NCBI GenBank assembly: GCA_964508925.1 | Contig: CAZDVM010000008.1 | Span: 97,774 to 161,773 of the forward strand | Direction of reading: 5' to 3' | From: an uncultured Pirellulales bacterium | GTDB taxonomy: Bacteria; Planctomycetota; Phycisphaerae; Sedimentisphaerales; Anaerobacaceae | Length of the DNA: 64,000 nucleotides | Shown here: piece by piece, positions 3,940 through 31,987 of the stretch | Position numbering within the stretch: the stretch's first letter is position 1 | Layout: each line of letters opens with the position of its first letter | Made by a program: the position numbers and the translations under genes | The notes under the pieces: generated by a model | What the model saw: only the letters and a program-made list of their open reading frames with translations | Told to the model about the DNA's origin: nothing | Databases searched by the model: none

Positions 3940-5277
3940 ATGTTTCAAAAAGTATTCGATTTTTTAAGGCACGGTATCTGGCGGTTGAGATTGAAGAATT
4001 ATCCGCCGGGAAAGTCATTTCTATTAAAACAGCTTCGAGTAATAGTGCTGTCGGTGAGAGGATTTGTAGAAGATCAGTGCAAGTTCCGAGCGTCTGCTTT
4101 AACATTCTTTTCGCTGCTTTCGATCGTGCCTGTATTGGCATTAATGTTCGGCATAGCAAAGGGATTCGGCCTTCAAAAAAGAGTAGAAAATGCAATACTT
4201 AATAATTTGCAAGACTTTGAAAATGTAGAAGGCTATGAAAAGATGGCCGAAAACATCATTTCCTTTTCAAATTCGCTGCTAGAACGAACAAGCGGCGGCC
4301 TTATTGCTGGTATCGGTGTGGTGTTTCTTTTCTGGACTATTATTAAGCTTTTAGGAAATATTGAAAATTCATTCAATAACATCTGGGGCGTTAAAAAACC
4401 CAGGCACCTTGGAAGAAAATTCAGTGACTATCTTTCAGTGATCCTTATCTGCCCGATACTTCTGGTGATATCCAGTAGTCTCAATGTAGCAATAACGACA
4501 CATGTAAAAGACTTTATTGCAAATTTCGATGTTCCGAATATTATTTCAGCCTTGATATTACTTTCATTGAGGCTGCTTCCGTTTATCACAATCTGGTTAA
4601 CCTTTTCGTTTGTATTTATTTTCATGCCAAATACAAAGGTCAAGCTTAAATCGGCCTTCGCATCTGCAGTGGTTTCGGGGACATTATTTGTTATAGCTCA
4701 GAAGCTTTATGTGATTTTCCAGGTAGGATCAGCCAAATACAGTGCTATTTACGGTAGCTTTGCAGCACTTCCTTTGTTTTTATTGTGGCTTCAGATAAGC
4801 TGGCTGATAGTTCTTTTCGGGGGGGAGTTGTCTTTTGCATATCAGAATGTTGACACTTACGAGTTCGAACAGGAGAGCCTCTCGATAAGTTATAAATTCA
4901 AGAAAAAGCTTTCGCTTCTGATAACGCATTTATTCGTAATGGATTTCTGCAATGAAAAGCCTGCGAAGACATCGTCAGAAATTACGCATCATTTTGAGAT
5001 CCCGATCAGGCTTGTACGGCAGATAGTTTTCGAACTTTGTGAATCAGGTATTCTTTCGGAAGTTAAAAAAGACGATGAGACTGACACGGCGTATCAGCCC
5101 GCGGTTTCAGTGAATAAGCTGACCATTAAATATGTTCTGGATGCCCTGGAAGGACATGGCAGTGCCGATATACCCATGGAAAAGACCGAGGTGCTTGAAA
5201 AACTGTCCGGCTGTCTAGAAGATATTTCCAAACAGATAGAGAAGTCGCCGGCTAATGTAAAATTAATGGACATCTGA
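3940..5277 (+). CDS. YihY/BrkB family membrane protein (RNase BN-like) with C-terminal extension
   Basis: 445 aa. Multi-TM core typical of the YihY family (FRASALTFFSLLSIVP) plus a soluble C-terminal ~110 aa domain. Confidence 0.65.
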   Translation: MFQKVFDFLRHGIWRLRLKNYPPGKSFLLKQLRVIVLSVRGFVEDQCKFRASALTFFSLLSIVPVLALMFGIAKGFGLQKRVENAILNNLQDFENVEGYEKMAENIISFSNSLLERTSGGLIAGIGVVFLFWTIIKLLGNIENSFNNIWGVKKPRHLGRKFSDYLSVILICPILLVISSSLNVAITTHVKDFIANFDVPNIISALILLSLRLLPFITIWLTFSFVFIFMPNTKVKLKSAFASAVVSGTLFVIAQKLYVIFQVGSAKYSAIYGSFAALPLFLLWLQISWLIVLFGGELSFAYQNVDTYEFEQESLSISYKFKKKLSLLITHLFVMDFCNEKPAKTSSEITHHFEIPIRLVRQIVFELCESGILSEVKKDDETDTAYQPAVSVNKLTIKYVLDALEGHGSADIPMEKTEVLEKLSGCLEDISKQIEKSPANVKLMDI

Positions 5278-5307
5278 TAATCAAATCCCAGGGATGTATA
5301 AAAAAAG

Positions 5308-5378
5308 CTGGGGCACAGGGATTTGAACCCCGACTAAATGATTCAGAGTCATTCGTGCTACCATTACACCATGCCCCA
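5308..5378 (-). tRNA. tRNA-Gln (anticodon CUG)
   Basis: Minus-strand sequence TGGGGCATGGTGTAATGGTAGCAC...AATGA-CTCTGAA-TCATT...CGGGG-TTCAAAT-CCCTG-TGCCCCA-G folds as a cloverleaf. 7-bp acceptor stem, TTCAAAT T-loop, anticodon loop CU-CUG-AA. CCA is not encoded. Confidence 0.85.
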
Positions 5379-10374: not shown

Positions 10375-10799
10375 AGGCTTTTCGGCATTTCATAATTTCA
10401 TTTTCGAAGATCTTTTGCGGGCAAGTCCTATATTATTCGCTTTAAAAGGCGTTGTATGAAGGGGTGGAAAATTTTCTTAAAATTTTTGAATTTTGTTCGG
10501 TTTTTGTTTGGGTTTTCCAGGTCGGTTTGCCGATAGAGTTATACACATTGCAAATGATAAAAAATGATCGGATGAAACCATGAAAAAAGAAGATAATAAA
10601 AAACCTTTATGTGTATTCGGGCCGGGCGGAGATTTCAATTCGATCCTCCGTTCAAGTGCTGAATTATCAGAAAATGAAAGCGGAGGACCGCTGGGTTCGG
10701 CTCTGGCTTTGATCAGGGATACTCTGAAGACTCTTTTGAGTCCGGACTCATATGAATATTCAGATGATGTAAGTGAAGTATTTAACGAAAAGGAAAAAA

Positions 10800-11426
10800 A
10801 TGTTAACACCACGTCAATTGGAATTGTTGAAAACGGTAAAAGATCTAACAGACAGCAACTGTTATTCCCCGTCAATAACAGAGCTGGCGACAGAAGCGGG
10901 AATAAGCCGAAGCACCGCATACGAACATATAAGCGAACTCAAAAACAAAAAAATGCTCACAGCTATCCCCGGCAAGGCTCGCTCTTTGAAAACAACTTCA
11001 AAGGCACTAAAACTGCTTGAGCAGTTAGATCGCCAACCGGAGGCAGAATCGAACGGATCGGGTATTCCGCTTTTGGGAAGGGTAGCGGCAGGTATGCCTA
11101 TTGAGGCGGTTGAAAACAGGGAATATTTGTCACTTGAGGATCAATTTGCCGTTTCCGATGATTCTTTCGCCTTAATGGTCAAAGGTAACAGTATGATCGG
11201 TGACAATATTTTTGACGGGGATTATGTGATCTGCAGGAGAACTGCCGCAGCCCGAAACGGAGAGCTTGTAGTTGCGATCATCGATAATGAAAATGCAACT
11301 CTGAAGAGATTTTTCAAGGAAAGTGACAGAATTCGGCTTCAGCCTTCCAATGAAGATTATGAACCGATCTATACGGACAACTGTCGGATCGAGGGTGTGG
11401 TTACCGGTTTGATGAGAAAATACTAG
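10800..11426 (+). CDS. lexA: LexA repressor
   Basis: LTPRQLELLK...ITELA...GISRSTAYEHI (LexA wHTH), then VAAGMPIEAVEN (Ala-Gly self-cleavage site) and GNSMIGDNI...GDYVICRR (S24 Ser/Lys). The ATG at 10800 has an AAGGA RBS. The ORF-track start at 10773 is a GTG. Confidence 0.9.
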   Translation: MLTPRQLELLKTVKDLTDSNCYSPSITELATEAGISRSTAYEHISELKNKKMLTAIPGKARSLKTTSKALKLLEQLDRQPEAESNGSGIPLLGRVAAGMPIEAVENREYLSLEDQFAVSDDSFALMVKGNSMIGDNIFDGDYVICRRTAAARNGELVVAIIDNENATLKRFFKESDRIRLQPSNEDYEPIYTDNCRIEGVVTGLMRKY

Positions 11427-12947: not shown

Positions 12948-13373
12948 ATGGCAAACATACCGCCGCCGATATTGCTTTCAGCAGTTATATGTGACCGGGT
13001 GATCATCGATAAGATGACGGGAATGCCTTCTCTGATAAATATAATCCAGACGTTAAGGGCACCAAAATTTCCAACCCGTATGCGTCTTCTTGTATTTTTC
13101 TGTGAACTTACCAACGGCAGAGGAAATGCCAGCACCAAGGTTCGGCTGATAGAATCTCAAAAGAAGGAGAAGGTTATGTTCGAACAGAAAGGAAGTGTCA
13201 AATTTCAGGACATAAAGCAGATTGTGACGATGAGTCTTAATATGCAGGGAGTGGTTTTTCCTGAGCCTGGAGAATACCGCTTTCAACTGTTTGTAGATGA
13301 GGAACTTATCGGGGAAAGGCGGCTTCAATGCAAAAAAACAGAGAGAAAGCAAGGCCCTCCTCCGAAAAAATAA
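12948..13373 (+). CDS. Hypothetical protein
   Basis: 141 aa. ATG with GGA-rich RBS. No recognisable domain by eye. Confidence 0.4.
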   Translation: MANIPPPILLSAVICDRVIIDKMTGMPSLINIIQTLRAPKFPTRMRLLVFFCELTNGRGNASTKVRLIESQKKEKVMFEQKGSVKFQDIKQIVTMSLNMQGVVFPEPGEYRFQLFVDEELIGERRLQCKKTERKQGPPPKK

Positions 13374-13450
13374 TTATTGTAATTTTTCTGTATTTATACA
13401 TAATCAAGGCCTAATTAAAATTTTAATCAAAGAATTTACGGGGGTTAAGG

Positions 13451-14473
13451 ATGATCAAAAAAACTTTTTGCTTTTCGTTAATATTTTTAGTCTGTTCGAT
13501 AACTGCTGCGGATAAAGTTTATTTGAAAAACGGGGACAGCCTTACTGGCAAGATAAAGACTATGACGGATAATAAGCTTGTTCTGAAATCTGAAATGGCA
13601 GGTGAGATCCAGATACCTTTTGAAAATATAAGAACCTTCGGTACCTCAGAAGCGGTTAAACTTCAGCTTCAAGACGGGTCAGTTATAAATGTAAAAACAG
13701 AGTCCTCCGAGCCGAATACAGTTTCTATCAAAGAAGGACAGACTTTAGAGAAACAAAGTTTAGCTTTCTCGGAGCTGAAATCGATAAACCCACCCCCTGA
13801 GAAAAAACCGAGATGGGCAGGTGACTTTTCCGCGGGGTATTCCAGTACTCACGGCAACACGCAAACACAAAACATCTCAGCAAGTTTCAATATGAAGAAA
13901 AGAACCGAAAATGACAGGACCACCTTCACCGGTGACTATGCCCGCAGTGAACAGACAGACGATGACACCGGCGAAGATGAGACTACGGAAAACTGGTGGA
14001 GGCTGAAGGGGAAATATGATTATTTCTTCTCGAAGAAATTTTATACATATCTTGACACCCGATATGAAACCGATGAAATAGCTGAACTTGACAGCAGGTA
14101 TATTGTGGGATCAGGTTTCGGTAAGCAGTGGATAGAATCCGAAGAGATGAATTTTTCCACAGAAGGCGGCCTCGCTTATGTAAAAGAGAATTTCGAAACC
14201 GAGGGCGATAATTCTAATTGTACCGTTCAGATGGGATATAATTTCGATAAGAAGATCAACGACAAATTGAAGATCATTAATGACCTCACTTATTATCCTT
14301 CGTGGGAAGATGTTTCAGATTATATTCTCACCACGACCGGTGAGATAAGATATAAACTGAACGACAGATTATTTACCAATTTCAGGGCTATTTTCGATTA
14401 TGATTCTACACCTGCAGAAGGAGCAGGCAATACAGATACTAAATACTTACTGGGAGTCGGGGGAACCTTTTAA
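13451..14473 (+). CDS. DUF481 (YdiY-like) outer-membrane beta-barrel protein
   Basis: Signal peptide, then alternating beta-strand pattern. C-terminal ...NFRAIFDYDSTPAEGAGNTDTKYLLGVGGTF matches the DUF481 C-terminus. Confidence 0.7.
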   Translation: MIKKTFCFSLIFLVCSITAADKVYLKNGDSLTGKIKTMTDNKLVLKSEMAGEIQIPFENIRTFGTSEAVKLQLQDGSVINVKTESSEPNTVSIKEGQTLEKQSLAFSELKSINPPPEKKPRWAGDFSAGYSSTHGNTQTQNISASFNMKKRTENDRTTFTGDYARSEQTDDDTGEDETTENWWRLKGKYDYFFSKKFYTYLDTRYETDEIAELDSRYIVGSGFGKQWIESEEMNFSTEGGLAYVKENFETEGDNSNCTVQMGYNFDKKINDKLKIINDLTYYPSWEDVSDYILTTTGEIRYKLNDRLFTNFRAIFDYDSTPAEGAGNTDTKYLLGVGGTF

Positions 14474-14628
14474 CAGGGAAAAAGTTAAAATAAACCCAAA
14501 AACATTTGGTTTTATGTTCATAATTATGCCGGTTTTAAAAACAACCCTCTTTCTCCCATTCCCTGACCAGCAGATCTCAGGTTACGAATAATGCCTTTTA
14601 CTCGTCCTTTTTACTAAGCAGCCGCTTT

Positions 14629-14808
14629 TTAAATATCAACATCCAGTAAAGACGGTTCAATGAAATCGGCAAGCTGTGCTATGAGTTTTCCCTGCAAAGT
14701 ATGCAGATCAAGCAGTTTTTCGAGAGTTTCAGCAGCTTTTGACCTGTCGAATTTTACTTGAACCTCTTTCTGTATGTTATGGCGGCCATTTTGTACCTCT
14801 TTGAACAT
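14629..14808 (-). CDS. Candidate small ORF (59 aa) divergent from the XRE-S24 repressor gene
   Basis: Absent from the ORF track. Translation MFKEVQNGRHNIQKEVQVKFDRSKAAETLEKLLDLHTLQGKLIAQLADFIEPSLLDVDI. It shares the 160-nt operator-bearing intergenic region with the repressor gene, a CI/Cro-like arrangement. No strong RBS. Confidence 0.3.
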   Translation of the reverse strand: MFKEVQNGRHNIQKEVQVKFDRSKAAETLEKLLDLHTLQGKLIAQLADFIEPSLLDVDI

Positions 14809-14856
14809 AATAATCCTTTCTCCGCTATTGACTTTGCAATAGCGATGTGTTACAAA

Positions 14857-14944
14857 TATTTCGCAAATATAAATTATACAGCCGTATATTATCGTTTATG
14901 CGAATATTTTTAAGTATTTACTTACGTTTTTGCGAATTATTTTG
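14857..14944. promoter_or_regulatory. Three copies of a TTGCGAAWWATTT operator-like motif (one inverted) in the repressor promoter
   Basis: TATTTCGCAAATAT (14857-14870, inverted), TATGCGAATATTTT (14897-14910), TTTTTGCGAATTATTTT (14926-14944), all within 110 nt upstream of the ATG at 14967. Confidence 0.5.
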
Positions 14945-14966
14945 AGTTTTTTTAGACCGGCAGATA

Positions 14967-15923
14967 ATGAGCAGTAATTCAGACCAGCAGATCATAGAAA
15001 GGGTGAAGATCCTGCGCGATAAATTTGCAGGGCCTCGAGGTAAAAGCAAGTTTGCCAAGGCGATTGGCATCAGCCCATCGACGTATAATTATTACGAAAA
15101 AGACCGGGTACCGCCTATTGAGACCCTGGTCAAAATGGCGGAACTGTCCGGTGCTGACCTGGTATGGCTTTTGACCGGCAAAAAAAACACAGAAAAACTT
15201 CAGCTGGGGCCTAACCAGGGATTGATAAAGAAGATCATCAGGCTGCTGGATGAAAACCAGGAGCTTGCGGGGCCTCTGGAAGCTTTTGTAGAACTTCTGG
15301 AAGCTCAACAGGAAATAGAGAATAAGGGTAAGTCAAAAAAAGTTAAGGATGATAAGGGCGGGGATAACTGGATCCCGGTGCTGGGAAGAACGGCAGCGGG
15401 GATTGCTTACAAGTGGAACGAAACTTTAAAACAACAAAGGCCCGATGTTACGGAACTTAAAGATATCGTTAAAGAACATACCGGAAAGGACATCTTAGAC
15501 AGCAGGGAGAAGAAAATCGAGATAGACCTGAAAGCCAGACCTTTGATGGAAAATCTTTCGGAGGGGGAAGTTAGCATTGTCAGGGTTACTGAAAATAACG
15601 GGGATGAACTGTTCGAATTCGTGGACAGTGAAAAAATAATCAGTATGTTCTCGGATGCGTTTGCATTGCATATTGACGGCGACAGCATGTCTCCGAAGAT
15701 AAATGACGGTAATATAGTGATAGTCAGTCCTTCAGTTAATGCTATCGAAGGCCAGACAGCAGTGGTAAAGATAAAGGATCAGATAGGAGTTACATGCAAA
15801 TTATTCCGTAAAGATGGGGGAAAAGTGCACCTGATCCCCGTCAATGAGAAATTCGATACTAAAGTATTCGATGAAAATGAACTTGAATGGGCCCTGGCAG
15901 TTTTGTGTCATGTCGATTTTTGA
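14967..15923 (+). CDS. LexA/CI-like self-cleaving repressor: XRE-family HTH fused to S24 peptidase
   Basis: 318 aa. N-term FAKAIGISPSTYNYYEKDRVPPIETLVKMAELSGADLVWLLTG (Cro/C1 HTH). LGRTAAGIAYKWNE (LexA-like Ala-Gly cleavage region). C-term GDSMSPKINDGNIVIV...KLFRKDGG (S24 Ser/Lys dyad). Confidence 0.85.
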   Translation: MSSNSDQQIIERVKILRDKFAGPRGKSKFAKAIGISPSTYNYYEKDRVPPIETLVKMAELSGADLVWLLTGKKNTEKLQLGPNQGLIKKIIRLLDENQELAGPLEAFVELLEAQQEIENKGKSKKVKDDKGGDNWIPVLGRTAAGIAYKWNETLKQQRPDVTELKDIVKEHTGKDILDSREKKIEIDLKARPLMENLSEGEVSIVRVTENNGDELFEFVDSEKIISMFSDAFALHIDGDSMSPKINDGNIVIVSPSVNAIEGQTAVVKIKDQIGVTCKLFRKDGGKVHLIPVNEKFDTKVFDENELEWALAVLCHVDF

Positions 15924-16085
15924 AAATTTTAATATTTAACCGGAACTTTTTTTATAAAAAAAAGGATTCTGAGATTTATTCTAAATTAATGCATCTAAAT
16001 TGTTTTGTTGAACTTTTTATTTGGCATGTTATAATCGGTAAGATTTTATAATAGGGGAAGTATATTATTTTGGAGAGTATCTTTT

Positions 16086-17153
16086 ATGTTTAAGAACATT
16101 TTACGTTTCATTTTTATTGTTGTAATTGCCGCAGTTATCATAGTTAATCTGACCATTCCCGAAATTTCAGGAGAAGTCGGCAGGAAGAATTTTTTCGTAA
16201 TCCTCTGGAGCGGTATCGGACTTGCAATAATAACTCTTTTAATTGACCTTTTTATGCCTAAAAAGTCGCTTGCGGGGCTTGCGGGCGTGTTTTTCGGTCT
16301 TTTGGTGGGAGTTTTCATCAGCTGGGTGCTTGCCCTTGTATTGAAAATGATGAACGAGATTTACAACATAGGATTGACTGTTACCGGGGTGCAGGCGATA
16401 CAATGGCTATTGGGTATATGTATTTGTTACACGGTTATCACCATAGTTTTGAGGACGAAAGACGATTTTCGTTTTGTAATTCCTTATGTCGAATTTGCAA
16501 AGCAGACCAAAGGTGCCAGGCCCCTGGTTATGGACACCTCAGCTATTATAGACGGCAGAATCGCCGACCTTTATAATAATAACCTGTTCGATGCCCCGAT
16601 AATCGTTCCCAGGTTTGTGATAAACGAACTGCAGCTTCTTGCGGATTCCTCTGATAAACTGAAAAGGAACCGCGGCAGAAGAGGGCTCGATATTTTAAGG
16701 TCCATGCAGGAAAACCCCAAGATGGAGGTCGAGGTCGATGAGAGCATCGTCAAGGATTCAGAAGGTAAGGGAGTTGACCAGAAGCTGGTCGTACACTGCA
16801 AAGAGATAAACGGCAGGTTGGTTACTACGGATTACAATCTTTCCAAGGTCGCACAGGTCAGGCAGGTCGATGTGATGAATATAAATGAGCTGGCCAATTC
16901 CATGAAAGCAATTGCCCTTCCGGGTGAAGAGATGACGGTCAAGATCATTCGCGCAGGTGAAGAAGCAGAACAGGGGATCGGATACCTCGATGACGGCACC
17001 ATGGTGGTTGTCGAAGGCGCAAGAGATAAGATCGGAAAAGACCTCAAGATCACCATCACAAGTTCGCTTCAGACTTCTGCAGGTAAGATGATATTCGGCA
17101 AGTTCGAGGGATTTGCAAATAAAAGATCAAAGCAAAGACATCAGAATGTCTGA
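16086..17153 (+). CDS. PIN and TRAM domain protein (YacL-like)
   Basis: N-terminal TM segments, PIN domain (PLVMDTSAIIDGRI...), C-terminal TRAM (MTVKIIRAGEEAEQGIGYLDDGTMVVVEGA). Confidence 0.8.
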   Translation: MFKNILRFIFIVVIAAVIIVNLTIPEISGEVGRKNFFVILWSGIGLAIITLLIDLFMPKKSLAGLAGVFFGLLVGVFISWVLALVLKMMNEIYNIGLTVTGVQAIQWLLGICICYTVITIVLRTKDDFRFVIPYVEFAKQTKGARPLVMDTSAIIDGRIADLYNNNLFDAPIIVPRFVINELQLLADSSDKLKRNRGRRGLDILRSMQENPKMEVEVDESIVKDSEGKGVDQKLVVHCKEINGRLVTTDYNLSKVAQVRQVDVMNINELANSMKAIALPGEEMTVKIIRAGEEAEQGIGYLDDGTMVVVEGARDKIGKDLKITITSSLQTSAGKMIFGKFEGFANKRSKQRHQNV

Positions 17154-18206
17154 TCAATATTTTTCTATCTCCGCTAATAGCTGATCGATAAGCTCTTGTT
17201 CGGGTACCGTGGAAATTTTTTTACCCTTGCTGTAAATATAGCCCTTTCCCTTACCGGCGCAAATGGCGAGGTCGGCATCTTTTGCTTCCCCGGGGCCGTT
17301 GACGACGCATCCCATGACAGCGATCTTCAGAGACTTAGTGACATTTTTTAAAGAGCTTTTGACTTTTTTTGCAAGGCCGATGACATCAACCTGAGTTCTG
17401 CCGCAGGTGGGACAGACGACTAACTCGAGTTTCGGTTTTTCTCTCAGGCCTAGCGATGTCAATATTTCATCTGCAATTTTCGCTTCTTTTACCGGGTCCC
17501 CTGCGATGCTTACCCTTATAGTATCACCGATGCCCTGGGAAAGCAGACTTCCTATGGTGACAGCAGAAGGAACTTTCGCATCTTCTGGCAGGCCTGCATG
17601 GGTAAGGCCGAGATGAATGGGATAATCGAAGTTTTCTGACAACATTTTGTTTACTTCGATGGTTCTCATCGGATCGCTGCTTTTTGCACTCAAAACGAGT
17701 TTTTCAAAATTTCTTTCTTCGAAAAGTTTTACGTAGCTTTTCAATTCCCGGAGCATGTGTTTTGTTCTTTTATTTAAGGGGACATCTTTTTTCAGATTGC
17801 GAATGCTTGCTTCGTTTACCCCTGCACGGACAGCGACATCGTTTGCTTTTGCGGCATCGATTATTCTTAAGATGTCATTTTTACTTTTTATGTTTCCAGG
17901 ATTTAGTCTGATCTTGGCAGCACCTGCTTCTATGGATTCGATCGCTCTGGAGGGACTGAAATGCACATCTGCTATAAGGGGAACATCGACTTGCGGTACG
18001 ATTTTTTTGAAAGCTTCGGTATCTTTTTTAGTTGGTACGGCAAGTCTTACCAGGCCGCAGCCTGCCTTGACCAATTGCTTGACCTGCTTTACACATCTTT
18101 CAATATCGGTGGTCGGCACTTTGGTCATGGACTGTATGATTACAGGGTGGTTATCGCCTAAAGATATGTTACCGATTTTTACGGTTTTGCTTTTCCGTTC
18201 TATCAT
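17154..18206 (-). CDS. ispG: 4-hydroxy-3-methylbut-2-en-1-yl diphosphate synthase (flavodoxin)
   Basis: VKIGNISLGDNHPVIIQSMT...CPTCGRT signature of IspG/GcpE. Confidence 0.95.
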   Translation of the reverse strand: MIERKSKTVKIGNISLGDNHPVIIQSMTKVPTTDIERCVKQVKQLVKAGCGLVRLAVPTKKDTEAFKKIVPQVDVPLIADVHFSPSRAIESIEAGAAKIRLNPGNIKSKNDILRIIDAAKANDVAVRAGVNEASIRNLKKDVPLNKRTKHMLRELKSYVKLFEERNFEKLVLSAKSSDPMRTIEVNKMLSENFDYPIHLGLTHAGLPEDAKVPSAVTIGSLLSQGIGDTIRVSIAGDPVKEAKIADEILTSLGLREKPKLELVVCPTCGRTQVDVIGLAKKVKSSLKNVTKSLKIAVMGCVVNGPGEAKDADLAICAGKGKGYIYSKGKKISTVPEQELIDQLLAEIEKY

Positions 18207-29260: not shown

Positions 29261-31987
29261 CTATTTAAATTCGGAAGAATCCACTTCGATGAAGGGTACT
29301 TGGCCTGCCCTGTGGAGAACCGGCCGGTTTTGAACAGAGCTTGTAATGATATCGAAATGTTCTGAAAGATCCAACACATCACCTTCATAAGTTTTAAAAT
29401 TGGGGACGTCGATCTTTATCGCTTCGGATGCAGGTTTGCCTGCAGGTACGACTTCGATATCGAATATTTTCATAGGCTTGCTTCGGTACATCTTTTCGAT
29501 CTTTAATTTAACGGTTTCCTTTTCCATGTCAATTTCGAGTGTCGCCCAGAATCTCGGGTAAAATAACGGATAGCGGACGAACTCGGCATCTTGCCTGATG
29601 ACCGGTGCCAGCCTGAATAATTTTTCCGGCCCGTCGAAACTTGCTCCTGCAAGGACATCGGTAATAAACCATGTCACCGGTGCGGACATATAGGTAGCTT
29701 CTCCGGGATTCCATAAGTTCTGGGTCCAGGTCCAGCCTTCTCTTAAGTGCACCAACTGGATATTTTTCATTATCGCCAGGCCGTCTTCAAGGTAGCCGTT
29801 TTGTATGCCGAGCATGGCGGTGTAGCTTTCCAGGTAAAAAGGCCAGCACTGTGAACCGGATTTGTCTATACCTCTTTTCAGGTTCAGGTCATAGACCTTG
29901 GGGGCATAATATGAAGGTGCACTTGATACAGAGGTCTTGAACTGTGAAAGCACAGAAGCCCGTGCCATTTTCTGTGGTACGACGTCACCCCAGCCGCAAT
30001 ACCTGCTTACGAACTGTCCCGCCAGCTGGCCGGTGAACATCCTGTAGTCCTGTTCATCAGAGCCGTCGAGGTCGCAGCCGTAAGAAAAGAACCTGCCGTT
30101 CCAGAGATATTTAATAAAGTCTTTCCGTGTTTCTTCCAACTGTTTCTGCAGCTTATTTTCGAAATCGTCGTCGTCCATGCAGTCTGCAAGTACCTTGCCT
30201 GCTTCCAGTGCAGAAAGATAAACGCCCGCGATGTAGGAATAAACGGGTGGATGGATGTAATCATCGTAGGTTGTCTTTCCGACAGGGATATCTATATCAC
30301 TTTTTATATTGTTCTTTAAATTCTCAAATGCGAATTTGACTCTTTCATAGTGCTCTTTGACGTATTCCTCGCCGCGTGTCTGCTGGTAGTCTTTCGCCAG
30401 CTGAATTATCCAACTGCAGGTGTTATCGAGCATCGTGCCCTTTGGAGCCGGTGACAAGCCTTCACGGGTTGCGATTCCAAGGTAATAATGGCCGTTGAAG
30501 TGCAGAATGAATCCTTCTTCCGGGTCCTGGGTATAAGCGAAGAGGTCCATTTCGGCCCTGTCAAGGTCGGTGAAGAATTTCTGGTAAAAGGGATGGGCGC
30601 TGAGCCTCTGGTCCATGGTGCCGGCAAGGCCTCCCATCTTACCTTCCATGACCGCAAAGTCACCTGCCCTGTTTAAGATACTGTTTGTATAGAGTACGTA
30701 GGCACTGTTTATAAGTTTGAATTTCAGCCAGTCCGGATAGGTACTTTCCAGTATAGGTTTATGCCATTCGACTGTACCTTCATGAATTCTGCTGTAATTT
30801 TGGGCAGAGTAGGCAACAATGTCACTTATCCCGTCGAAGAATTTGTGGAAATATCTGCCGTAATCCTGGGTTCCGAAATAGCTTTTAGGGTGTGCTTTTT
30901 CCCTGTCAATCTTCAGCTGCGGATAGTACCAGGCGACCATAAAGCGGACGGTTTTGGTTTCCGCTTTGTCAAGTTTGAGTTTCAGGGCTATGGCACTTGC
31001 TTTCTCTTTTGCTTCATCGGGATCGTAAAGTTGTACCTTGTCGAAATCTTTCGCAAATGTTCCGTCTTTTTTGAAGGTCTTCCATTTCTGTTCGCCGTTG
31101 TTTACTTCATATGCGGGAAGAACGGTAACTTCTGTTCCTTCGGTTTCTTCAGCAAGGATGGCGACTTCCTGAACGTAATTCTGGTAAGTAGCCTTGATCG
31201 GGTCGAAAGGTTCGGGAGTAAACTGTTTAATGCCTTTCCATTTGCCGACTTCGAAGGGTTCAGAAAAAGTTTCGACCCTGGGGTAATCGACCCAGTTGGC
31301 TCTTTTGACGTGAAAGGCGTTGTTTTTGGGTAGTTTATCCAGCGCATCTTTGTTTTCCAGATCAAGAAGGCCTCTGGAGATGATATCTTCCCATGAAAGT
31401 GCGATACTGGTTTCTATCGGCCTGTTTTCAGTATTAACGATCGACACTTCGAAAAATGCCACCGGCAGCGAAGAATCCTTTATGTTATGGGGAACGCAGC
31501 CAGACCAGCCGTAAAGAGAGAGTCTCGAACGGGGTTCATCTGCACTTCTGTCCTTGAAGGCAACTCTTGCAGTCGGGAAAAGTCCCCGGTAAATGGAACT
31601 TGCGTAACCTTTCAGACCCAGATATTCGGAATCATCCCTTACCATCCTCCTGTGGGTTATCTTTTTCCTTCTTGTATTGTTTTCCCAGATAGCAAAGAAG
31701 CTCGCCTTTACGTCTTTGATAACCCCGTCTTCGTGGGTGTTATTCAGTGCTATCCTTGTGAATTCGCCTGTAGGTGCGAGGTCAAAACAACCTGTACCTA
31801 CACCGCCGAACGGTACCCCGCTTGGCCCGATATGATCCTTTAATGCAAGGTAGTTAAAGCCTGTAGCACCGCCGGAAACATCACTGAAGAAGCTGGTATT
31901 TGCCGTTTCCGCCCCGTAATCAGGCTGAGCGGCAAAACTTGTGGTCAGGATCAATAATGACATGATAAAAATACCCGTTTTTCGCAT
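29261..31987 (-). CDS. Secreted GH116-like glycosyl hydrolase (GBA2/beta-glucosidase-type)
   Basis: 908 aa. Signal peptide. N-terminal GVPFGGVGTGCFDL motif typical of the GH116 N-domain, followed by a large (alpha/alpha)6-type catalytic region. Confidence 0.6.
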   Translation of the reverse strand: MRKTGIFIMSLLILTTSFAAQPDYGAETANTSFFSDVSGGATGFNYLALKDHIGPSGVPFGGVGTGCFDLAPTGEFTRIALNNTHEDGVIKDVKASFFAIWENNTRRKKITHRRMVRDDSEYLGLKGYASSIYRGLFPTARVAFKDRSADEPRSRLSLYGWSGCVPHNIKDSSLPVAFFEVSIVNTENRPIETSIALSWEDIISRGLLDLENKDALDKLPKNNAFHVKRANWVDYPRVETFSEPFEVGKWKGIKQFTPEPFDPIKATYQNYVQEVAILAEETEGTEVTVLPAYEVNNGEQKWKTFKKDGTFAKDFDKVQLYDPDEAKEKASAIALKLKLDKAETKTVRFMVAWYYPQLKIDREKAHPKSYFGTQDYGRYFHKFFDGISDIVAYSAQNYSRIHEGTVEWHKPILESTYPDWLKFKLINSAYVLYTNSILNRAGDFAVMEGKMGGLAGTMDQRLSAHPFYQKFFTDLDRAEMDLFAYTQDPEEGFILHFNGHYYLGIATREGLSPAPKGTMLDNTCSWIIQLAKDYQQTRGEEYVKEHYERVKFAFENLKNNIKSDIDIPVGKTTYDDYIHPPVYSYIAGVYLSALEAGKVLADCMDDDDFENKLQKQLEETRKDFIKYLWNGRFFSYGCDLDGSDEQDYRMFTGQLAGQFVSRYCGWGDVVPQKMARASVLSQFKTSVSSAPSYYAPKVYDLNLKRGIDKSGSQCWPFYLESYTAMLGIQNGYLEDGLAIMKNIQLVHLREGWTWTQNLWNPGEATYMSAPVTWFITDVLAGASFDGPEKLFRLAPVIRQDAEFVRYPLFYPRFWATLEIDMEKETVKLKIEKMYRSKPMKIFDIEVVPAGKPASEAIKIDVPNFKTYEGDVLDLSEHFDIITSSVQNRPVLHRAGQVPFIEVDSSEFK

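Follow-up and report, generated by a model that had tools for sequence, protein, structure and literature searches.

In Acinetobacter, the self-cleaving S24 repressor UmuDAb and the divergently encoded, small, lineage-specific protein DdrR share an operator-bearing promoter region, and both genes are repressed by UmuDAb (PMC11332147). In Francisella, a co-opted phage-type S24 repressor, FddR, has a core network that consists of the repressor itself and a divergent gene of unknown function (PMC13148647). These two systems are the closest analogues of the planctomycete cassette analysed here, which lies at positions 14,629 to 15,923 of a 64,000-nucleotide (nt) stretch of DNA from an uncultured Pirellulales bacterium (contig CAZDVM010000008.1 of assembly GCA_964508925.1). 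This whole 64-kb stretch, with a G+C content of 43%, is hereafter called the window. The cassette comprises a gene for a repressor of 318 amino acids (aa) and a divergent gene for a protein of 59 aa, and it probably constitutes a self-contained, autoregulated, cleavage-inducible repressor-effector unit of the Sedimentisphaerales/Phycisphaerae.

The likeness to FddR, which was compared by its described features and not by homology, comprises a chromosomal S24 repressor with a phage-type N-terminal domain and conserved catalytic residues, a promoter of its own that contains a palindromic operator, and a clade-wide distribution (PMC13148647). In the planctomycete cassette, too, the palindromic operator found in silico in the repressor's own promoter is common to a conserved divergent gene. 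The two systems differ in their motifs, which are GTG-N11-CAC in Francisella and TTCGCA-N2-TGCGAA in the cassette, and the cassette has an extra insertion of about 80 aa, a predicted single-helix partner of about 55 aa, three to five phased operators and promoters that are predicted to face each other. Furthermore, Francisella has no functional canonical LexA, for which FddR stands in, whereas a canonical LexA is encoded in the window 3.5 kb from the cassette, and lexA adjoins the cassette in two related loci (L058 and L070). UmuDAb, on the other hand, is UmuD-derived with a cryptic helix-turn-helix (HTH) at its N-terminus, controls the error-prone polymerase genes umuDC/umuC and replaces LexA, and DdrR has been shown to bind UmuDAb and to act as a co-repressor (PMC11332147), whereas the small planctomycete protein is known from sequence alone.

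Partial likenesses to other described repressors were also noted. The LexA-like proteins of Bacteroidetes are chromosomal, combine a phage-repressor-type HTH with S24 and recognise short palindromes, but they govern a multi-gene SOS network in the absence of LexA through the motifs GGA-N5-TCC and CTAA-N5-TTAG, and the paper describing them does not mention Planctomycetes (PMC8565304). PrlP of Streptococcus suis is a chromosomal XRE-HTH and S24 repressor with Ala-Gly self-cleavage and few direct targets; pH and other stresses modulate this cleavage, and a dependence on DNA damage has not been shown, the motif of PrlP is CCTGAAWCT, and no conserved divergent small partner has been described for it (PMC12273997). 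With lambda CI, P22 c2 and 434 the cassette shares the two-domain plan of the repressor (PHROG_4), the HTH fold, several operators between divergent genes and a likely negative autoregulation, but it lies outside a prophage, its partner is not an HTH protein of the Cro type, its operators are spaced 31-32 bp apart and LexA rather than CI is the nearer match to its S24 core. A GR(V/T)AAG motif, a Ser/Lys dyad and a LexA-like core fold are held in common with canonical LexA and with LexA1/LexA2 pairs (e.g. in Leptospira, PMC3789691), whereas the planctomycete repressor differs by lacking LexA_DNA_bind, by a sub-threshold lexA score, by its insertion and by having no SOS-box regulon detected in the regions scanned. 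The cassette is thus distinguished by its coexistence with LexA, the insertion beside the cleavage site, the one-helix partner, the 31-32-bp phasing of its operators, some of which are intragenic, and the facing promoters. No description of this cassette family was found in full-text literature searches.

The repressor and its small partner

A homolog search with the repressor returned 956 homologs of about 319 aa with roughly 50% identity, and a scan of one genome per species identified relatives encoded in at least 445 species genomes. Of these, the best 80 were taken as loci L001-L080, on which the operator, promoter and small-gene counts are based; the closest relative of the window cassette, L083, is 68% identical.

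Pfam assigned residues 25-68 of the repressor to HTH_3 (E 1.5e-8) and residues 226-308 to Peptidase_S24 (E 2.9e-18), with further matches to HTH_19 and, weakly, to Phage_CI_repr. A sequence-only reading, made earlier by a model from the letters of the window, had described the protein as a Cro/C1-type HTH joined to an S24 domain with an AAG cleavage region and a Ser/Lys dyad, which the Pfam matches and the alignments bear out. The cleavage motif, read in the window as VLGRTAAGIAYK, belongs to a stretch, WIPVLGRTAAG, that is invariant or nearly so in 26 and 120 homologs, as are GDSMSP with the catalytic Ser240 and CKL with Lys278. In the 120 sequences G140, R141, T142, A143 and G145, as well as Ser240 and Lys278, are invariant, and the predicted scissile bond, Ala144-Gly145, is encoded at 15396-15401. 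The region aligns with IPLLGRVAAGM of the window's own LexA, to which the S24 core is 32% identical. Profile matches in the PDB over residues 232-317 were to UmuD and LexA. With Foldseek the C-terminal domains of LexA came first for the S24 core (29-34% identity, root-mean-square deviation (rmsd) 2.5-2.9 Å), ranked above lambda CI (24% identity) and UmuD (about 20%). On these grounds the S24 domain is LexA-like and seems catalytically intact, and we infer that the repressor cleaves itself at the predicted Ala-Gly site.

The N-terminal half is of another kind. The HTH is structurally closest to P22 c2/434 (Foldseek, rmsd 1.7-1.8 Å), and its recognition-helix region, ISPSTYNYYE, is invariant or nearly so in the alignments of 26 and 120 sequences. 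The phage CI-like family PHROG_4 matches almost the whole repressor (residues 7-305, E 6.4e-25). Between the Ala-Gly motif and the catalytic serine there are about 95 residues, as compared with about 40 in the window LexA, and the inserted region on its own gave no match in Pfam or the PDB. In the AlphaFold2 (AF2) model of the repressor the mean predicted local distance difference test score (pLDDT) is 67.7; the HTH is confidently modelled and residues 141-179 score below 50.

In 75 of the 80 loci an orthologous open reading frame (ORF) of 47-80 aa lies on the minus strand, with its start about 130 nt upstream of the repressor. Pairwise differences between the orthologs at codon positions 1, 2 and 3 number 5304, 2865 and 9350, and this excess at the third position indicates that the small ORF is a coding gene under purifying selection. 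The N-terminus varies in length and sequence within the family and is usually rich in Lys and Arg, whereas the C-terminal 27 or so residues are conserved, with the majority form KAAEYVxHLLELHKLQGxLLxxLxKEV. In the window protein the N-terminus is of low confidence, and the amphipathic helix is conserved with the core L..L..LQG.L...L; AF2 predicts one continuous helix from residue 12 to 55, with mean pLDDT values of 90-98 in the 10-residue blocks that cover residues 21-50. The sequence-only reading had also noted this divergent 59-aa ORF and placed it in the position of Cro. The ORF and its position stand, but the protein is not Cro-like, as it is predicted to form a single long helix, without an HTH.

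The small protein had no match in Pfam, NCBIfam, PHROG, PADLOC or the PDB. An exhaustive profile search gave 65 representative clusters, all but one of them stand-alone proteins of 45-96 aa; the exception, a protein of 1151 aa, matches over seven short segments. A word-based search returned 19 relatives, the named ones being hypothetical proteins of Planctomycetota. Neither the repressor nor the small protein nor the neighbouring PIN/TRAM protein matched the defence models of PADLOC.

Operators and predicted facing promoters

The upstream regions of the 80 loci define the operator as an imperfect dyad of 14-16 bp, WTTCGCA-WW-TGCGAAW, with the core CGCA-WW-TGCG. A position weight matrix (PWM) was built from these related loci with the window sequence excluded. 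At a threshold of at least 9 bits, 143 matches fell in the upstream regions of about 230 nt (about 18 kb in total) and 144 in the remaining 550 kb or so. The matches occupy fixed positions relative to the repressor start codon, at -52 (O1) and -21 (O2), and further at +11 in about a quarter of the loci, at about -105 in some loci and at +230 to +271 within the coding region; adjacent sites in the family are 31-32 bp apart. In the window the matrix finds three sites, A, B and C (Table 1), with 31 bp from A to B and 32 bp from B to C. None of 200 block shuffles of the window had three matches within 100 bp, and none of 5000 shuffles of the intergenic region had even two. The three sites are thus beyond chance, and the invariant recognition helix fits the conserved motif.

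The sequence-only reading had likewise proposed three operators, as copies of the 13-mer TTGCGAAWWATTT in an upstream region of 160 nt. Three operators shared with the small gene are indeed present, and the region, which measures 158 nt from start codon to start codon, is shared by the divergent pair, but the motif itself had to be replaced by the dyad. TTGCGAAWWATTT has just two exact matches, at 14854-66 (minus strand) and 14930-42 (plus strand). With one mismatch allowed a third match appears at 31044, outside the locus, and the resulting count of 3 is reached in 19 of 100 shuffles and is not above chance; at 14899, where a third copy had been presumed, only the looser TGCGAAWWWTTT fits. 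A repeat search found 27 nt repeated directly at 14893-14919 and, 32 nt further on, at 14925-14951, so that the repeated copies are longer than the 13-mer. Another candidate, the perfect 8-bp inverted repeat CGCTATTG-N6-CAATAGCG at 14823-14844, was rejected as an operator, being not kept in L083; it overlaps the -35 element of the predicted repressor promoter.

Both promoters were assigned from conservation in the family. Between the small-ORF start codon and that of the repressor, 75 of 75 loci carry the sequence TTGAC, at a distance of 17-20 nt from the former; it belongs to a plus-strand consensus, TTGACa-N17-TAAanT, in which conservation peaks at the positions relevant to sigma-70. This putative repressor promoter, P_rep, implies a leader of about 75 nt with both O1 and O2 in it. 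The region around O1 has the consensus AAtAtTAACGCAttTGCGAAa.AttgCAA, which on the minus strand reads TTGcaa-N16-TAaTaT with O1 in the spacer; conservation is strongest at TTG and at A2 and T6 of the -10 element. In L083 the corresponding putative small-gene promoter, P_small, is TTGAAA-N16-TATATT, with a better -35 than that of the window.

The two predicted promoters face each other with start points about 15 nt apart, which for the window are predicted near 14863 (plus strand) and 14879 (minus strand), so that overlapping transcripts and colliding polymerase footprints would be expected. In this respect the cassette would resemble coliphages 186 and P2 more than the back-to-back lambda type. 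The comparison with OR1-3 of lambda made by the sequence-only reading accordingly fails, PR and PRM being back-to-back and the cassette operators lying 31-32 bp apart under promoters whose transcripts are predicted to overlap. A promoter and terminator scan of 14400-16100 found no terminator for the small gene, and Rfam gave no match in 13000-17500.

Table 1. Coordinates of the cassette features and of the LexA gene in the window.
Feature	Position	Strand	Basis
Small divergent gene, 59 aa	14629..14808	-	Ortholog conservation, codon-position bias, AF2
Shine-Dalgarno region of the small gene, GGAGAAAGGA on the minus strand	14813..14823	-	Read from the sequence; family ctCcTT adjoins the small-ORF start
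Predicted repressor promoter P_rep: -35 TTGACT (14828-33), 17-nt spacer, -10 TACAAA (14851-56)	14828..14856	+	Family conservation, L083
Operator site A, TTTCGCAAATATAAAT, 11.0 bits, one good half-site	14859..14874		PWM; half-site TTCGCAA kept in L083
Predicted small-gene promoter P_small: -35 TTAAAA (reverse complement of 14908-13), 16-nt spacer, -10 TAATAT (reverse complement of 14886-91)	14886..14913	-	Family conservation, L083
Operator site B, TATCGTTTATGCGAAT, 14.6 bits, equals family O1	14890..14905		PWM; kept in L083
Operator site C, TTACGTTTTTGCGAAT, 15.4 bits, equals family O2	14922..14937		PWM; 18-nt block identical in L083
Repressor gene, 318 aa: XRE-type HTH, helical linker, LexA-like cleavage motif, family-specific insertion, S24 core	14967..15923	+	Pfam, homologs, Foldseek
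HTH DNA-binding domain, residues 25-68	15039..15170	+	Pfam; AF2 pLDDT about 90 over residues 10-70
Putative autocleavage region LGRTAAG, residues 139-145	15381..15401	+	Conservation, alignment to window LexA
Family-specific insertion, residues ~146-225	15402..15641	+	Conserved columns W150, T162, V168, G173, D187, V207, E217, F218
S24 catalytic core (Ser240, 15684-15686; Lys278, 15798-15800)	15642..15890	+	Pfam
Canonical LexA, context only, outside the cassette	10800..11426	+	Pfam LexA_DNA_bind and S24; NCBIfam lexA

Operator-like sites were also observed within the repressor gene of related loci. In about a quarter of them a fourth phased operator lies in repressor codons 4-9, 31-32 bp past O2 (e.g. 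L003:4012-4027, L065:2374-2389), and the N-terminal residues vary to suit it, reading D-A-N-A-I instead of D-E-K-A-I. The sites at +230 to +271 (e.g. L013:4272-4287, and at +230 in L003) include one that coincides with the linker motif F-A-F-G, encoded as TTC-GCA-TTT-GGG: among the 17 loci with this motif, TTC and GGG are used in all 17, GCA in 15 and TTT in 16, as compared with a background codon use of 17% (TTC), 29% (GCA) and 22% (GGG). A full site, TTTCGCTTTTGCGAAA, spans the codons for S-L-L-R-K in other loci. This suggests selection at the DNA level, in loci that are not phylogenetically independent; the window has neither the F-A-F-G nor the S-L-L-R-K form. In L055:3437-3620 and L024:3559-3684, tandem 42-nt repeats, each with a near-perfect operator (e.g. 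TTACGCATTTGCGAAA, 23 bits), occupy non-coding DNA just past the stop codon of the small gene, on one side of the cassette only.

Proposed cleavage-inducible control and the size of the regulon

In the proposed unit a dimer of the repressor would recognise WTTCGCA-WW-TGCGAAW through its P22 c2/434-type HTH, and repressor dimers would occupy the three sites between the facing promoters, the spacing of 31-32 bp corresponding to three helical turns. Site B falls in the spacer of P_small and site C just upstream of its -35 element, so that bound repressor would be expected to silence the small gene; site C also sits inside the 5' leader of the repressor. Site A overlaps the predicted start point of P_rep and is therefore likely to be the autoregulatory site, exerting negative autoregulation. 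In the relatives, sites in the spacer and leader of P_rep would take the role of site A and limit repressor synthesis. Upon a signal, the repressor would cut itself at Ala144-Gly145, parting the HTH from the dimerisation domain, whereupon the small gene would be derepressed and the firing of P_small would interfere with P_rep.

The trigger is most likely RecA on single-stranded DNA after DNA damage, as suggested by the LexA-like motif and by analogy to LexA, CI, UmuDAb and FddR (PMC11332147, PMC13148647). The induced product would be a single-helix protein of about 50-60 aa, usually with a lysine-rich tail, that might serve as an effector or as a modulator of the repressor; this last assignment is the least certain part of the scheme.

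Several points weigh against this scheme. The whole case is computational. LexA, CI and UmuD have no equivalent of the insertion of about 80 residues that separates the cleavage motif from the core, and AF2 is uncertain over residues 122-180, so that the reach of the Ala-Gly bond to the active site cannot be judged from the model. The promoter hexamers of the window are weaker than the family consensus (-10 TACAAA and -35 TTAAAA), and a strict promoter scan of 14400-16100 calls neither promoter, which is explained by -10 boxes that lack the final T. Site A has just one good half-site. As regards the trigger, a canonical LexA is already present, so that a second RecA-driven repressor is not obviously needed, and S24 regulators may answer signals other than DNA damage, as exemplified by PrlP (PMC12273997). 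Finally, the operator scan covered the 64 kb of the window and some 8 kb for each related locus, and targets elsewhere are possible.

A rather doubtful alternative is that the target of the small helix protein is the repressor itself, which would make the cassette a feedback switch; the protein would then be no independent effector but a co-repressor like DdrR or phage gp7, an anti-repressor or a cleavage gate on the insertion, and the trigger would perhaps not be RecA. The strict co-occurrence and divergent arrangement of the two genes would suit such a switch, as would a conserved insertion right beside the cleavage site, and the sole conserved part of the small protein is an amphipathic helix, a typical protein-binding element. 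The facing promoters would moreover make the two genes mutually antagonistic, and the binding of DdrR to UmuDAb is a precedent (PMC11332147). Against this, the interaction is putative and some 75 sequence pairs are too few for a covariation analysis, the lysine-rich tail of most orthologs could equally mean nucleic-acid binding, and a repressor that represses its own co-repressor makes an unusual circuit, albeit one that UmuDAb-DdrR does form. An extension of the same idea, which we regard as unlikely, is a protein-gated S24 switch: the helix protein would dock on the insertion and control self-cleavage or DNA binding, and the facing promoters would render the circuit bistable, giving a memory of damage or stress parallel to, and independent of, LexA/RecA.

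A different possibility is that the repressor governs many genes. The sequence-only reading had offered two interpretations, a domesticated CI/Cro-like switch or a second, parallel DNA-damage regulon as in LexA1/LexA2 organisms. The latter would make the repressor a second SOS master regulator, controlling many repair genes through scattered TTCGCA-N2-TGCGAA boxes. The LexA-like cleavage motif and S24 core would be compatible with such a role, XRE-type S24 regulators run SOS networks elsewhere (PMC8565304), and the site scans were confined to the window and the ortholog flanks. Within these regions, however, the detectable regulon is the cassette itself. Apart from the three operators, a single window match scores 11 bits or more; it is at 30320, within a coding sequence of 908 aa, and is taken as chance. 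No promoter-located operator site was found upstream of any other gene in the 64-kb window, polymerase genes included. In about 550 kb flanking the 80 orthologs there are roughly five matches of at least 14 bits off the cassette, which is near the chance rate of about 0.4 per 64 kb. Of these, an 18-bit site in L050 was looked at more closely; it falls within a transketolase gene and is taken as chance.

Nor does the protein resemble a second LexA. Pfam did not find LexA_DNA_bind (PF01726) in the repressor, the HTH of which is of the XRE and P22 c2/434 type, and against the NCBIfam lexA equivalog the repressor scores 44.4 bits, below the cut-off of 110.95. The canonical LexA that the sequence-only reading had recognised in the window, in contrast, has LexA_DNA_bind and S24 and scores 157.2 bits. 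A second master regulator of SOS is therefore distinctly improbable, and the self-contained unit remains the preferred interpretation. As for the other interpretation of the sequence-only reading, a chromosomal, domesticated-looking repressor switch with three shared operators is retained, without Cro and without the lambda layout.

The LexA ORF of the window starts at 10773 or, more likely, at 10800. Just upstream of the likely start, at 10723-10767, an inverted repeat with 21-nt arms (81% complementary) and the palindrome TCATATGAATATTCAGATGA were observed; the region is a candidate LexA box of the source organism, from a single sequence.

Descent and significance of the cassette

The few named homologs of the repressor are from metagenome-assembled genomes of Sedimentisphaerales or Planctomycetota. 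The cassette is flanked by housekeeping genes that differ between lineages. In the window, the upstream neighbours identified by Pfam are RDD, DUF6941 and DUF481, the downstream one is a PIN/TRAM protein, and genes that we take to be ispG, trpC and smpB, recognised from their translations alone, lie nearby; the ORF list and Pfam show ordinary genes and no phage genes on either side, in line with the sequence-only reading, which had seen no phage structural genes there. The PIN/TRAM protein (16086-17153), of 355 aa and membrane-anchored, follows the repressor likewise in about 16 divergent loci and is usually itself followed by ispG on the opposite strand. The order repressor-PIN/TRAM-ispG is kept in the window's clade, with canonical lexA coming after it in L058 and L070, and this synteny is evidence of vertical descent, to which the identity of about 50% across 445 species also points. 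The cassette is an old, vertically inherited chromosomal family of the Sedimentisphaerales/Phycisphaerae and not a prophage relic; the match to PHROG_4 in overall plan leaves room for a distant phage ancestry of what is now an old chromosomal unit.

Two observations concern the surroundings of single loci. In 3 of about 70 loci the cassette is bracketed by long inverted repeats of up to about 300 nt with 91-93% complementarity (L013:3350-3648 and 5024-5324; L061:3357-3513 and 5099-5244; L074:3082-3136 and 4859-4913). The arms contain sub-repeats with a period of 10-11 nt and 42-nt repeats with strong operator-like sites, and may act as distal operators in looping or represent a repeat element; being absent from the window and from the other loci with enough flank to compare, they were discarded as a general feature of the cassette. 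On the contig of homolog P0057 a type II CRISPR-Cas locus (Cas9, Cas1, Cas2; L081:1-1767) lies about 6-8 kb upstream of the cassette, probably by coincidence.

A remnant of a prophage or mobile element, i.e. a leftover CI/Cro-type immunity region or a small mobile cassette, is very unlikely: the PHROG_4 and weak Phage_CI_repr matches, the P22 c2/434-like fold and the bracketing repeats with operator-like sites in L013, L061 and L074 speak for it, but no repressor relative was found in 2.9 million viral contigs and no full-length relative in 50,697 phage and 72,556 plasmid records (partial S24 matches only), flanking repeats were found neither around the window cassette nor in the other loci with enough flank to compare, the partner is not a Cro-like HTH protein, and the housekeeping neighbours, the PIN/TRAM-ispG synteny across divergent lineages and the conservation across 445 species do not fit a remnant.

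To our knowledge, DNA-damage regulation has not been described in Planctomycetota, and we know of no FtsZ in the bacterial order that hosts the cassette. In 2016 a paper on Verrucomicrobia stated that the SOS response was undocumented in the PVC superphylum (PMC4951493). With a clade-wide regulator, its operator, its promoters and a single conserved target defined from sequence, the system is directly testable. The cassette is a case of a phage-style S24 repressor that coexists with LexA instead of replacing it, which is relevant to the proposed growth of SOS-like networks out of self-contained divergent units (PMC13148647). New biology may lie in the insertion of about 80 aa and in the small one-helix protein, which is usually rich in lysine: the latter could be a damage-induced effector in bacteria without FtsZ, or a new kind of repressor modulator. 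If the protein-gated switch, unlikely as we consider it, were true, the cassette would provide this FtsZ-less bacterial order with a memory device for damage or stress.

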